NCBI GenBank assembly: GCA_951406725.2
Contig: OX597835.1
Location: forward strand, 9,548,001-9,612,000
Reading direction: 5' to 3'
DNA from: Octopus vulgaris
Lineage: Eukaryota
DNA length: 64,000 bases
The notes beneath the pieces were generated by a model. That model saw nothing but the letters and a program-made list of their open reading frames with translations. It made no database searches and was not told the origin of the DNA. Positions 430 through 47,184 of the stretch are shown here, piece by piece; within the stretch, counting starts at the first letter, position 1; each line of letters opens with the position of its first letter. Position numbers and translations under genes: made by a program.

Positions 430-511
430 GGTCTTACAGTTGTTTCTGCTATAAGATGCAGTGGGATCATAGTTGAGTGCCTGAATCACACTTTATACCT
501 TCATCGGAGCC
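430..511 (-). ncRNA. Degenerate type I hammerhead-like motif (CCGAUGA core, long stem II insert)
   Basis: Minus strand: ggct CCGATGA [54 nt] GAAA caactg TA agacc. Stem I and stem II are imperfect. The same family recurs at about 47060-47185. Confidence 0.4.
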
Positions 512-891
512 TCGAATACGAAGTGCAATTCATCTCGGAAAGTTTAACACTCGTACCCATAAACGGAATGGCATCAACAAAGTTCATAAGATAATCCTTT
601 ATTCCTTCCTCATCTCCCTTTCTTTATATACATACATATATACATAAAATATATATATGTGTATGTGTATGTGTGTGTGTGCGCGCGTGACGTGACTGCG
701 TGTGTATTCGAGTGGTAATACATGCGCTAGCTGTGCGAAATTACATCATATGGGTTATGCCCCAAGATAGCAGGAGCGTTAAACTCACTGAATTGCATCC
801 GATGGATGTTCAAACAAATCGCTCTCTCTCTCCCTCTCTCTCTCTCTCTTTCTCTCTCTCTCTCTCTCTCTCTCTATATATATATATATAT

Positions 892-1056
892 ACGACAGGC
901 TTCTTTCAGTTTCCGCCTGCGAAAATCCATTCACAAGGCTTTGGTCGGCCCGAAGCTATAGTAGAAGACACTTAATCATGTTGCTACGCAGTGAGACTGA
1001 ACCCGGAACTATGTGGTTCGTAAGTAAGTTACTTACCACACAGCCACTCCTGCACC
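892..1056 (-). mobile_element. tRNA-derived SINE family A, 5' half
   Basis: Reverse complement matches the head ggcgcaggagtggctgtgtggtaag...ggttcagtccc (A/B-box-like) seen in many other copies in the window. Confidence 0.85.
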
Positions 1057-2564
1057 AATATATATATATATATATATATATATATATATATATATATATA
1101 TATATATATATATATATATATATATATATATATATATATATATATATATATATATATATACATACACATATATATATATATATATATATATATATATATA
1201 TATATATATGTATGTATGTATGTATATAATATATATCACCTTATGTAACCACGCGTGTTTGCGTCGTTGAAACAACTGCAATTTTTTGTTATTTTTCGAT
1301 TTGTTTAATTTCTGAAATGCTAGTTTATAATGGAAGCCACATCATGCTTCAAGATATTGTTTATGCAAACAAAGCATAAATGTGGAGAAATCAAAGCAAA
1401 GAGCAGCAAAGGTTAGAACTGTTCTTAGCTTTTTACATTGAAATTTCCTCTTAAAATAATGAAAACAACTACAGCATAAATACGTACATATATTTTATGC
1501 ATCTCCATATACATATATAAATATGCATGCACCCACACACATTTCCCTACACATACACATACATACAAAAATACATACATAGATACATACACACAAACAT
1601 ACATACATACATACATACAAACATACATACAAACATACATACATACAAACATACATGCATACATACATACAAACATACATATATATATATATATATATAT
1701 ATATATATATATAATGTCTGTACATATATGTATAAATGCTTGTAAATTTGAATTAATAAATTATAATGGAGTTGACGGTCCAGTGAGTGGTGCTTGCTAA
1801 AAAAACAATAAAACTATAATCAGTCCGTCTATAGCTCAGTCAATTTTGTTTTGAATAGATACAACATTAGACTTGATACAGATATGTTTGGTGAACAACA
1901 TTTTTTTGTTTTTCACCGGGAAAAAGGTGTCGCCATATTAAAGTATTTGCTCTTCTCTGCTTGCAACCGCAACCGATTTAATTTTGTTTCTCTTTCCCTC
2001 GCTTCCATAAATATATAATTTTCAGCTTTTGCTGTTTAATGTAATTCGAAGTCAGCTGCAACTGCCTGGGTAGGTCATCAAATGCATTCCAGCTATGACC
2101 ACCATGTATTTCAATAATGATTTCATATCAGTAACATCTTGTCTTCTAATTTAGGAAAACAAGGTATATATATATATATATATATATATATATATGGGAG
2201 TTTTGATTCAATCTTGCAAATGCGTATTAATGGAATTGATTCTAAATGAAACAGACCAATTTCATTTAGTCTATGTTTTGTTTCCTCTGAACGAAGCCAG
2301 ATCTACAAGCAACAGCATGTTGTTGATTTATACAGTTGTCTGGGTTTTACAACCATTCGTTGAAGCAAGCTAAAGAGAGAGCGTCAACGCAGCCGATAGA
2401 GCGACCAGAAACGGCAACCAATCTTTTCTCGCAAGACAGTTAGTCATACAATGGAAGTTATAAGATTTATTTATGTAACGATGCCACTGAAATCTAGCGA
2501 AGCTACATAAATATTTGTCGCGTAGTATCGACATTACAAATGAGTTTTACTAAATGAGTTGTAG

Positions 2565-2780
2565 GTAACTGTAAACTGGTAGAACCGTTGGCGTGTCTGA
2601 TAAAATGTTTAGCAACATTGCTTCCGGTTTCGTTATGACCTCATATCCCGCAACGTTCAGTTTAGCTTTTTTATTTATACGAGCGATCGGATAAATACCA
2701 GTCATGTATTGGGGGTTGATTCAAACGACGTGCTTCCTCTTCTTGAAAATGCTGGCTGTGAGACAACATTAGAAGTATTA
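2565..2780 (+). mobile_element. Old, diverged SINE family B copy
   Basis: Residual similarity (ctggtagaaccgttggcg...taccagtcatgtattggggg) to the copies at 15063 and 15888. Confidence 0.5.
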
Positions 2781-4808
2781 CTAAAAGTTAAAGAAAAGGG
2801 AAATTTATGTCACATTGGGGCAGTAGAGTAAACGTGTCTTTTCCGACAATGCAAAAGAAAGTTCTTAACCAGAATTCGTTTACATACAGCGTCAGTCTGT
2901 CTGTTAGAGAGAAATAACCGGATTGCATACTTCCCCTGATGTGTCAGCAATGATAGACTTTAAAAGTCTTTGATAATGTCAGGTTTTATTTGTAAGATGG
3001 AAAGGTATTGAATCTTTGTCGAATTCAATCACTCTTAGGAGTCTATTTTAGTTTGGGGTCAGGCTGTCTATCCATACTCCACGCACAAGATGGATGACAT
3101 ATGTTAGTTCCTCTCTGATTTATCGGATATGGTGATGTCCTGAGCACGCAGTGAGCGGTAGACGCTGACTGGGCTGCCAATATCAGATTATATTTGATTT
3201 GCACTGACATGAATGTAACACGAACAATACTGATACACAACATAGATATGTGAACATACATGTGTGCGTGTCTGTATCTATGTGTGTGTAAGCGCACACA
3301 TACACACATGCAGGTATACAAATATGCATACATACACATATACATACATACACACACACATATATATATATATATATGTATATATATATGTGTGTGTGTG
3401 TATGTATATATATATATATATATATATACATACACACACACACACACACACACACACACACACATATATATATATATATATATATATATATACATACATA
3501 CATACATACAATATACTTGGCACACCAGAATGTAGAAAAACATATTTTTTGAAGACGATGAATTGAGGACATTTGGAAGATAATTTTAGTAGGTCAAACT
3601 ATCACTTGGAGCTTTCCGGATTTATTTGACAGATTTTGCGGTCCTCAACCCATCGTGGTCTAATATTTTCTAACATAAGTATGGATTATGGCATAAAGTT
3701 TTAGATTCGCAAAACTAACGGCTACAATGATAAATGAGAAGAAATGAACGGGTAGATTTCATTAAACTCCATGATCGCTAAATCTTGGATTTCAGATTGA
3801 AATTAAACTTGTAAATGGAGAAATTAAATACGATAAGATATTTAATTGAGAATTCTAAAATTTCCACCAAATCACCGTCCCCTTCACATATTAATAATGA
3901 AGATTAGAAATAGATTGGTTTCAATAAATAATATTAAAATGAAACTAGAAATAGATAATCATGATCAAGAAATATCTTAAAGCTGAATCTCAAGAGAAAT
4001 GTTATTTTAGACTGTAACAGAAGACCTCTAAAAATCATTGCGTTATTTAGAATATAGAGACATGCGTCTACTCTAATCGCTTCAAGGCATCGATCTATAT
4101 ATTTTTAATTATTTATCTCAGATTATTCTATTAAATACAACATTACTGAAATTAGAAAACGAGATATTATCACTTCATATCCTTTTGGCCGGAATAAAAT
4201 CTATTGTGTATCTTAATTTGGCAAATAACAACTTAGTTACAAGCTAATGAGGGTACTTTTATGCAGCCAGTTGACCTGTTAGAAATAGCTGTAGCAATTT
4301 ATACAGAGCACAATTTTACAGGAAACTTGCATATTGTATAACGAACCCCGTGATCGATACCCTAGGGCTAAGAAATAGATTGGATTGTCGCGTATTAAAT
4401 GTCATTGACGGCACAGGTGTCTAAGCGAAATGGACATCCTCTTTCAATATCGCTGTCTGATAATTCTCCTCTCTCTCTCTCTCTCTCTCTCTCTCTCTCT
4501 CTCTCTCTCTCGCTCGCATATATATATATAAATTAGAAAACCCCCCCACCTTTTATCAATTCAAAATGAACGATTAAATTACACCATCTAGAAAATTACA
4601 TATAATAGAAATATTAAAATTAAAATAACAATAAAATATCAATAATTAAGTAAATTGCAAAAAATTGATATTGTGTGAAATCTGATTTTGTATTTCTACA
4701 TTGAATTTTTCTCCCTGTAATTTTGGATTAATATTCCCTCAAATAATAATTATTATATATATATATAGGTGAGAAAGTTGGTGTGTGAAAGCACGTGGTT
4801 GGATATAT

Positions 4809-45955: not shown

Positions 45956-46039
45956 AGTAATACAGTGAAGGAGAAGTAGAGAGAGTAATACAGTGAAGGA
46001 GGAGTAGAGAGAGTAATACAGTGAAGGAGAAGTAGACAG
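45956..46039. repeat. 28-bp minisatellite x3
   Basis: agtaatacagtgaaggagaagtagagag at 45956, 45984 and 46012. Confidence 0.9.
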
Positions 46040-46580
46040 AGAAAGATTAAGAGAACGTAATAACTGTTTGAGAAAGAAGAAAGCGGAGTATCTCTTCTGT
46101 TTTGAACATATGAATGTGAAAAGAAAGGGTGAATAAAGTAAAAAAAAAACAGCCATTCAACTCTGTGTGAGTATATATGTATATGTATGTGTGTGCTTGG
46201 GAAATATGTGAATGCCTGTATCTGTGATTGTTCTGTACTTCAGTTTGTACCTTGTTTAAATAACAATTAGCCATCAATTATAAACGGTACAGGGTCAGCT
46301 AATAAATAAATATATAGAAATATCAAAACGGTAGTAAGATAATTAAATGATTTAAATGTAAAATCAACCGTCTCACAATCACAGATGAACCAAAATTAAA
46401 ATACAATATCTTAAAAATTTAATTAAAAATTAGAATTTCAAACATTTCTTCAAATTAAAGATTAAAATAAACGATGCGAGAGGAACCAACATGAGTAGTA
46501 AATACAAAGCATGAAACAGAAATTCTCAAACTCTCAACAACGACAAAATCAAAATGAAAGCAGATTGAATAAAACACCTA

Positions 46581-46693
46581 TAATAGATATCCTTAATTAC
46601 AATTAATAGATATCCTTAATTACAATAGATATCCTATAATAGCTATCCTTAATTACAATAGATATCCTATAAAAGATATCCTTAATTACAATT
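46581..46693. repeat. Irregular tandem repeat of aatagatatccttaattac
   Basis: Read directly from sequence. Confidence 0.85.
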
Positions 46694-47057
46694 TATTAAA
46701 CAGACATTTATTTTTATGAACACAGAAAAATACGCCTTTCAGATTTAGTGTTTAACAACCTTCTTCTAGGAAATAAAATCAAAACTAATTTCTCAGAACA
46801 AAGAGAGTAGAACCTATTACCAAACTAGCCAGGGCCGTCCCTAAAATGCCCATTCAATAAAGAACGTTTTATTCTTATTTTTAAGATTCCAGATGAAATT
46901 ACTAAGACTATTTGAAGCCCTATTCCTTTTACTAAAACCCCTTTTTTTTAAAATATAATTTGTAGAAGATCAAATATCAATGTAATCACTACCTTCAGAA
47001 ATAACTCAAAATACAAGGCTTCAGAATGAAGCGTTAGTCAAGGACACTTCCTTAGCT

Positions 47058-47184
47058 TACTGCTGTTTCTTATTCAGTAGATTTATTGTTGAGTGCCTGA
47101 CTAACACCTTATATAACCTGTGAAGTGATATGGTGGTACTCAGGCACTCAGCTACGAATCCACTGCTTCATAGTAGCAGAAAAA
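47058..47184. repeat. Fold-back copy of the element seen at about 430-511
   Basis: gttgagtgcctga / tcaggcactcagc inverted arms, homologous to 443-500. Confidence 0.7.

Follow-up and report, generated by a model that had tools for sequence, protein, structure and literature searches.

Type I hammerhead motifs at the ends of Penelope-like elements and of non-coding tandem units in (TA)n tracts of the Octopus vulgaris genome

A 64-kb stretch of Octopus vulgaris DNA (contig OX597835.1, positions 9,548,001 to 9,612,000; hereafter the window, part of a 2.80-Gb assembly in 227 contigs) carries type I hammerhead ribozyme (HHR) motifs that lie at the 3' ends of Penelope-like element (PLE) families and of non-coding tandem units. 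All of these were likely put into (TA)n tracts by the reverse transcriptase-endonuclease (RT-EN) of PLEs, a reading to which we assign a probability of roughly four in five.

An earlier note on this DNA, made from its letters alone, had listed ten HHR positions in about six elements unrelated in sequence. Each of the ten does fall on a type I HHR motif or a remnant of one, and they resolve into seven families, rather than six, and nine insertion events. The families, here called A to G, are indeed unrelated, with no mutual DNA similarity below an E value of 0.028. The window is microsatellite-rich with a GC content of ~33%; its repeats were mapped by masked self-BLAST, the unmasked listing of direct repeats being dominated by microsatellites.

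Families B, F and G lead into PLE coding frames

The earlier note had assigned the hammerheads to PLEs and had described the elements as non-autonomous. The first claim is upheld by B, F and G, which lead upstream into RT and GIY-YIG frames; the second survives for C and D but not for B, F and G, which are 3' stubs of coding PLEs. Coding PLEs with matching termini are seen for these three families, and no autonomous partner turned up for C or D.

Searches of the octopus genome with each family returned 372 to 2,917 first-look candidates (more than 1,000 each for C and D), of which 40 were scored per search. For B, a PLE RT-EN frame lies upstream in the same sense in 11 of 30 loci. One nearly complete copy (locus L192) consists of a TA tract, an inverted pseudo-long terminal repeat (pLTR), a broken RT-EN frame, a pLTR, and a second TA tract; the pieces of its frame hold GxKF, DKG, Cx4CxxC, and GIY-YIG, and match Pfam RVT_1 (E 2e-6) and GIY-YIG (E 0.002), both under the curated cut-offs. 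Beside this element, at L192:2300-2680, two family F-like pLTR ends face each other in a TA tract, so that PLE families are stacked in one microsatellite.

For F, searched with the distant B as query, 6 of 30 loci have an in-sense PLE frame upstream; F shows the same linker and EN pattern as B. Four marks distinguish the Neptune clade, namely a Cx2-5CxxC linker, a CCHH EN, GxKF, and DKG; B has all four, and F the linker and EN only. For G, no frame appears within 1.5 kb upstream in 25 loci, but an EN-coding region lies ~2 kb upstream in all three long stretches, one of which (L198) also has the RT. L198 bears the marks of the Hydra clade, including DKT, a CxCx5C linker, CxxC and CxH in an EN that lacks CCHH, a canonical HHR, and (TA)n, with RWA where that clade has RWK; a protein search with the G frame found two relatives at 27% identity. 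The B, F and G frames that we saw are all frameshifted or truncated. By their sequence motifs, on which the clade assignments rest in place of an RT tree, B and F are 5'-truncated ends of coding Neptune-type PLEs, and G is that of a Hydra-clade PLE.

Families C and D are non-coding tandem units

C and D form head-to-tail units of 511 and 472 nt with one HHR each; past its own 3' end, the sequence continues into the unit's own upstream part. The longest stop-free frame is 77 codons, and no PLE frame runs into the unit in 55 C and 60 D loci (overlapping; 43 and 48 unique insertions), although PLE frames lie close by without entering it in 5 of the 55 and 8 of the 60. As circles, both are predicted to fold better than shuffled sequences (z -4.3 and -4.6). 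No RNA records were present among the listed holders of the D stretch. With a non-coding head-to-tail unit, a single type I HHR, and low GC, C and D have the sequence features of non-LTR retrozymes, and they also carry the PLE insertion signature described below; the retrozyme-like, non-autonomous units proposed in the earlier note are supported in these two families.

Could A, C, D and E too, and hence all seven families, be stubs of coding PLEs whose full copies were left unsampled, with the tandems being partial tandems of truncated copies? This is what B, F and G proved to be; G itself seemed non-coding within 1.5 kb and revealed its frame only ~2 kb upstream, and the number of candidates scored per search was limited to 40. 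In C and D, however, the HHR is preceded by the unit's own 3' end continuing, which leaves no room for a frame, and none of the 115 C and D loci has a frame entering the unit. We regard this explanation as improbable.

Two other tandem arrays were seen. At L199:1900-4900, a 353-359-nt unit with a canonical GUC HHR occurs in five copies one way and two inverted, adjoining a TA tract (circular fold z -6.3); its sequence suggests a young, classical-looking retrozyme array. At L218:1700-3200, a 535-nt tandem HHR unit with an inverted arm lies between TA tracts (circular fold z -6.1) and represents a further retrozyme-like family.

A and E are old families. One E insertion recurs with 1.5 kb of common flank in seven loci (L354, L355, L356, L360, L361, L362, and L373; five on C31, one each on C6 and C7), which indicates that it was amplified within a larger repeat.

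Insertions pair one short and one long 3' end

The association with (TA)n reported in the earlier note is borne out: a TA tract follows the 3' end in 28 of 28 copies of B, 25 of 35 of C, 21 of 29 of D, 14 of 29 of F, and 14 of 18 of G, compared with 4.4% of random positions (the count omits 17 of 46 D ends that continue into the unit). In each of B, C, D and G the 3' end takes one of two fixed positions, ~42, ~95, ~91, and ~69 nt apart, respectively, and the 5' ends are scattered along the element. Among 77 inverted pairs with tails facing out, 66 join a short to a long end, one joins two long ends, and 10 are unclassifiable; the pairing rule thus holds in 66 of 67 classifiable insertions. Given that the arms of an inverted pair overlap in sequence, making such a pair would take two copies of the template, or a multimer or circle that supplies two units. 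The combination of 5' truncation, an inverted 5' arm, an optional tail, and a microsatellite target is the signature of EN-containing (EN+) PLEs; B, C, D and G show it, while for F the check covered the 3' flank.

These ends also bear on the idea that C and D are satellite-like tandems descended from pLTRs and expanded locally through unequal crossover, without mobilisation in trans. Both families are tandem and non-coding, no partner element was found for them, and such a route was raised in a 2026 preprint on animal retrozymes (10.64898/2026.07.22.740005). But their matches are scattered over many chromosomes, the mapped arms are short (the longest reaches the limit of the ~1.7-unit query), and crossover does not produce two fixed 3' ends, variable 5' ends, and a short-plus-long rule that holds in 50 of 51 classifiable C and D pairs. 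A satellite origin, already disfavoured, is highly improbable.

The families share a hammerhead core with different stems

A type I HHR has the form C3UGAxG8A ... GAAA ... UH with three helices and stem I open. B, C, D and G take this form, as do the usual motifs of A and E. In aligned copies, the core is canonical in C, D and G, has a compensatory U3-A8 in B, and appears to have C4 in A and E (for A by a looser count). Both core boxes are present in 22 of 23 anchored copies of B, 16 of 19 of C, 34 of 37 of D, and 10 of 10 of G; anchored counting was unworkable for A, E and F, where the looser count was used. At the C4 position, A copies have TG in 7 of 24 and CA alongside those with CG in 6 of 24, which suggests that the master copy had C4 and that CpG decay followed. 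The core variants, which the earlier note thought might be undescribed, are already in print: a study of natural HHRs (PMC3088659) reports U3-A8 and finds the U4C variant weak in vitro and sufficient in vivo.

Five families (B, C, D, E and G) have a self-complementary stem III, whose predicted self-duplexes range from -7.0 to -11.3 kcal/mol. The predicted probability that stem III forms within a monomer is at most 0.26 in B, C, D and G, and in E it is 0.8. Unrelated families hold the core and three helices with differing stem sequences.

Motif density is high across the genome

In the window, a relaxed descriptor finds five motifs, more than chance would give: 100 dinucleotide shuffles (microsatellites removed) average 0.17 and never exceed 1. 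Four decoy descriptors find 1, 0, 0, and 0. To estimate density, we sampled 77 stretches of 10 kb (770 kb) at round coordinates on the 30 largest contigs, spread by hand and not in proportion to length. The strict descriptor gave 26 motifs, or 33.8 per Mb (bootstrap 16-57), and the relaxed descriptor gave 42 motifs at 29 sites, or 54.5 per Mb (32-81); one seven-copy array supplies 7 of the sampled motifs. The four decoys gave 1, 2, 1, and 5 in the same 770 kb, and shuffles of the first 57 stretches (570 kb) gave 0-2. Extrapolated to the whole genome, these densities correspond to ~95,000 strict (44,000-160,000) and ~153,000 relaxed motifs (91,000-225,000).

The high density noted in the window is thus a property of the genome, at 34-55 motifs per Mb, and not of the window; a hotspot was considered and rejected, with five relaxed motifs found and 3.5 expected. 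Of the sites in the first 570 kb, 16 belong to the seven families of the window, F alone contributing 13, and the remainder come from other families of ~25 rough types. A at position H17, which the earlier note saw in every motif, holds for the window families but not genome-wide: the 42 sampled motifs have C in 21, A in 13, and U in 8, and we dropped A17 as a rule of the lineage.

A single minimal HHR family, with a two-base stem III insert, a GUU site, and mostly C4, was seen at 6 sites in 570 kb (L208, L218, L219, L236, L240, and L245), and is probably present in tens of thousands of copies.

Published motif counts, made with other descriptors, are 126,247 for axolotl, more than 6,000 for Acropora millepora, ~5,000 for mussel, and ~9,000 for Xenopus tropicalis. 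The axolotl figure over 28.21 Gb comes to 4.5 per Mb. The other comparison genomes have roughly 3-13 motifs per Mb.

That the motifs are inert relics or chance matches in AT-rich inverted repeats, without catalysis, is the least probable explanation of all, close to negligible, for while the strict descriptor and Rfam find none in the window, most copies are damaged, and 1 of 9 frog retrozyme dimers cleaved in the 2026 preprint (10.64898/2026.07.22.740005), the 42 relaxed matches far exceed the decoys and shuffles in the sample, and unrelated families retain the core and three helices with differing stems, including the compensatory U3-A8 pair.

State of the copies in the window

Only three HHR copies in the window are intact, with the usual family motif and full stems: two of B (4929-4967 and 8298-8336) and one of G (45114-45195). 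A D copy at 40303-40363 has a single stem I mismatch and an intact core; both core boxes are retained, with mismatched stems, at 34284-34344 (D), 39297-39340 and 39344-39387 (E), and 430-513 (A). The motifs are broken at 39839-39899 (D; A6 and G12 lost), 5369 (C), 44842-44880 (F; core deleted), and in the pair at 47046-47190 (A). The earlier note had called the one at 5369 more decayed; it is instead truncated, its whole 5' core cut off by an inversion junction.

The B insertion at 4768-5157 (minus strand) has a minus arm, 4768-5021, with the intact U3-A8 HHR, and a plus arm, 5034-5157; it is the 3' pLTR stub of a coding Neptune-type PLE. The second B copy, at 8244-8497 (plus strand), is an inverted duplicate of 4768-5021 including flank, so that the motifs listed at 4926 and 8296 stem from a single insertion, copied together with its surroundings (identity of 254 in 254 bases for the arm and 97% for the flank). 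The local inverted duplication, 4558-5021 and 8244-8761 (~460-520 bp), takes in the B arm and flank; the flank at 4558-4753 is itself a repeat that occurs as inverted arms in L145.

The G stub at 45080-45320 (minus strand) consists of a minus arm, 45080-45287, with the intact HHR and an inverted tail piece, 45287-45320, and is the 3' pLTR of a coding Hydra-clade PLE. The RT relic that the earlier note placed at 44478 is confirmed by tblastn against longer F copies, with E values down to 6e-14; in this F relic (44478-44975, plus strand), an RT fragment of a Neptune-type PLE is fused through an internal deletion to the 3' pLTR.

C is represented by a two-arm insertion at 5225-5657 (plus strand) between TA tracts, whose plus arm begins at 5359 inside stem II and so retains just the 3' half of the motif, up to 5411. 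The D insertion at 39712-40426 (minus strand), also between TA tracts, is a partial tandem of ~1.4 units, with its two HHRs 464 nt apart and an inverted arm at 40363-40426; an older D copy at 34146-34473 (minus strand) shares ~80% identity with it. The two-arm E insertion at 39270-39470 (plus strand) has one HHR on each strand (minus at 39297, plus at 39344), a C4 core, and partly decayed stems, and belongs to an old family for which no open reading frame (ORF) was found. The A insertion at 300-627 (minus strand), of a family likewise old and with no ORF found, has a minus arm whose HHR has a C4 core and a ~54-nt domain II, and a short inverted arm; a second two-arm A insertion at 47046-47190, with no strand assigned, is strongly decayed.

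Other repeats lie in the window as well. An abundant family resembling short interspersed nuclear elements (SINEs), presumably like those of octopus, occupies 893-1056, 16438-16865, 23770-24204, 25750-26077, 42766-43155, 44034-44441, and 61637-61984. A second abundant short family lies at 13012-13157, 15061-15299, 15858-16110, 42263-42477, 48137-48318, 50362-50561, 57983-58407, and 61387-61623. A young repeat (96% identity) at 9039-9422, 56125-56508, and 57448-57601 has 63 matches in the fetched loci. Palindromic elements at 122-248 and 7114-7164 have 0 and 12 matches there, and no HHR was called in either.

Discussion

Several results weigh against insertion of all these elements by PLE enzymes, or against functional ribozymes within them. 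The strict descriptor finds no motif in the window, and the Rfam hammerhead models find none at the gathering score in the window and 13 motif-bearing stretches; at E<=10, no hammerhead family is among the best 150 of 528 rows, which are mostly microsatellites matching miRNA models. We attribute the lack of matches in the window to the damage in most of its copies. The relaxed descriptor was composed after the window motifs had been seen; its independent controls are the genome sample and the decoy cores. The loci analysed are the best-scoring matches rather than a random draw. F has U3 with G8, its usual motif pairs stem I only with an offset and so lacks a clean stem I, and no stable stem III duplex is predicted for it. 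Neither an upstream frame nor a tandem unit was found for A and E in 55 loci each, and no autonomous partner with C or D ends was found. No empty target sites were seen, and the TA tracts could thus be partly growth after insertion. Hammerhead cleavage was dispensable for insertion of a lizard PLE in vitro (PMC11167929). Among arms that were not pre-selected, 42 of 59 in D and 26 of 55 in C cross the cleavage site, which suggests that most templates are either uncleaved or re-ligated at that point. The 5' ends are only weakly enriched within 15 nt past the site (pooled rate ratio 2.2, 13 inside and 131 outside, p 0.011, in an interval chosen post hoc). A pile-up of 5' ends at the cleavage site was therefore not retained, other 15-nt intervals being equal to it within each family.

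From the anatomy, which can be read directly in the DNA, we infer the enzymology, the mobilisation in trans, and the cleavage as follows. Nicks made by the PLE protein in the two strands of an AT-rich target would each act as primer for reverse transcription, which would begin at the short internal start site of the RNA on one strand and at the long site on the other. Early stops in copying would leave stubs that bear hammerheads. Because reverse transcripts often run past the cleavage site and beyond the length of one unit, the RNAs that C and D offer to the PLE enzyme in trans would be multimers or circles. Cleavage by the ribozymes is predicted to be slow, either in dimers through the self-complementary stem III or with the aid of protein, and to free RNA of unit length. 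Most genomic copies are dead through truncation or decay. Consistent with this scheme, the lizard PLE was reported in vitro to nick both strands, to start reverse transcription at two internal sites, and to have a hammerhead assisted by protein (PMC11167929).

A bolder version would hold that no other animal genome described so far is as dense in hammerheads (~1e5 motifs in dozens of families), that the retrozyme families are direct genomic proof of PLE-driven insertion, and that the short-plus-long rule reveals a PLE dimer priming two strands at two start sites on two RNA copies, possibly joined by the palindromic stem III. Taken as a whole, we consider this unlikely; if templates were joined by stem III, the pLTR ribozyme would have a role in pairing them.

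The family types themselves, PLE pLTR hammerheads and units like non-LTR retrozymes, are already known. What is new is the density across the genome, the retrozyme-like families with PLE-type ends, and the short-plus-long pairing rule. We found no genome-wide account of octopus hammerheads in the literature on octopus or cephalopod hammerheads, retrozymes, and Penelope, a body of work in which subscription papers fell mostly outside our search. The role of the hammerhead in EN+ PLEs has been called unclear (PMC8557442), and PLEs have been proposed to mobilise animal retrozymes (PMC7229834; 10.64898/2026.07.22.740005). With numerous young copies whose ends record the chemistry of insertion, the octopus makes both questions testable by counting. 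HHR families also affect repeat annotation: the main text of a 2026 repeat annotation of O. vulgaris (PMC13282606) does not contain the words ribozyme, hammerhead, or retrozyme, though its library may hold the families unnamed. If even a small share of the ~1e5 putative motifs cleave when transcribed, host transcripts could be affected.

Comparison with known systems

The closest precedent is the minimal type I HHRs in the pLTRs of EN+ PLEs, with U3-A8 and low activity as dimers, described by Cervera and de la Pena in 2014 (PMC4209133). The octopus motifs share the type I topology, a short stem I, a palindromic stem III, an extra nucleotide at the base of stem II, the U3-A8 variant, many solo motifs from truncated copies, and opposite-strand pairs 100-700 bp apart. 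The families and host differ, as do the stem III of 3-5 bp per arm and the domain II of up to ~55 nt (A and G), and we estimate ~1e5 motifs here compared with 2,000-9,000 per genome there, using differing descriptors.

The supplement to Craig et al. 2021 (PMC8557442) includes one hammerhead-bearing octopus PLE with a preference for (TA)n, Hydra-1_Obim of Octopus bimaculoides. G resembles the Hydra-clade PLEs of that study in its DKT, CxCx5C, CxxC and CxH in a C-terminal EN, canonical HHR, and (TA)n target; it differs in having RWA for RWK and a 3' untranslated region of ~2 kb. Its HHR is unlike that listed for Hydra-1_Obim, indicating that G is another family. The RT pieces of F are like those in the Neptune-clade rows of the same study, an assignment by motifs only, and Neptune is paraphyletic there.

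C and D resemble the animal non-LTR retrozymes (Cervera and de la Pena 2020, PMC7229834; Li et al. 2026, 10.64898/2026.07.22.740005) in being non-coding, low-GC, and head-to-tail, with one type I HHR per unit and a self-paired circle (predicted here). Their units of 470-510 nt exceed the 170-400 nt reported in 2020 (PMC7229834) and lie inside the 51-972 bp range of the preprint (10.64898/2026.07.22.740005). Most of their copies, unlike those of the known retrozymes, are short incomplete tandems within (TA)n that bear PLE-type tails and inversions.

Finally, the insertions can be set beside PAc, a Poseidon element of the green anole (Frangieh et al. 2024, PMC11167929). For PAc, two internal RT starts define the tail, both strands are cut and extended, and the target is AT-rich, as proposed here. 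The octopus tails are ~42, 69, 91, and 95 nt, compared with 30-40 for PAc, and whereas the sections of that study consulted describe no strand bias of start site in vitro, inverted insertions in the octopus pair a short end with a long one.

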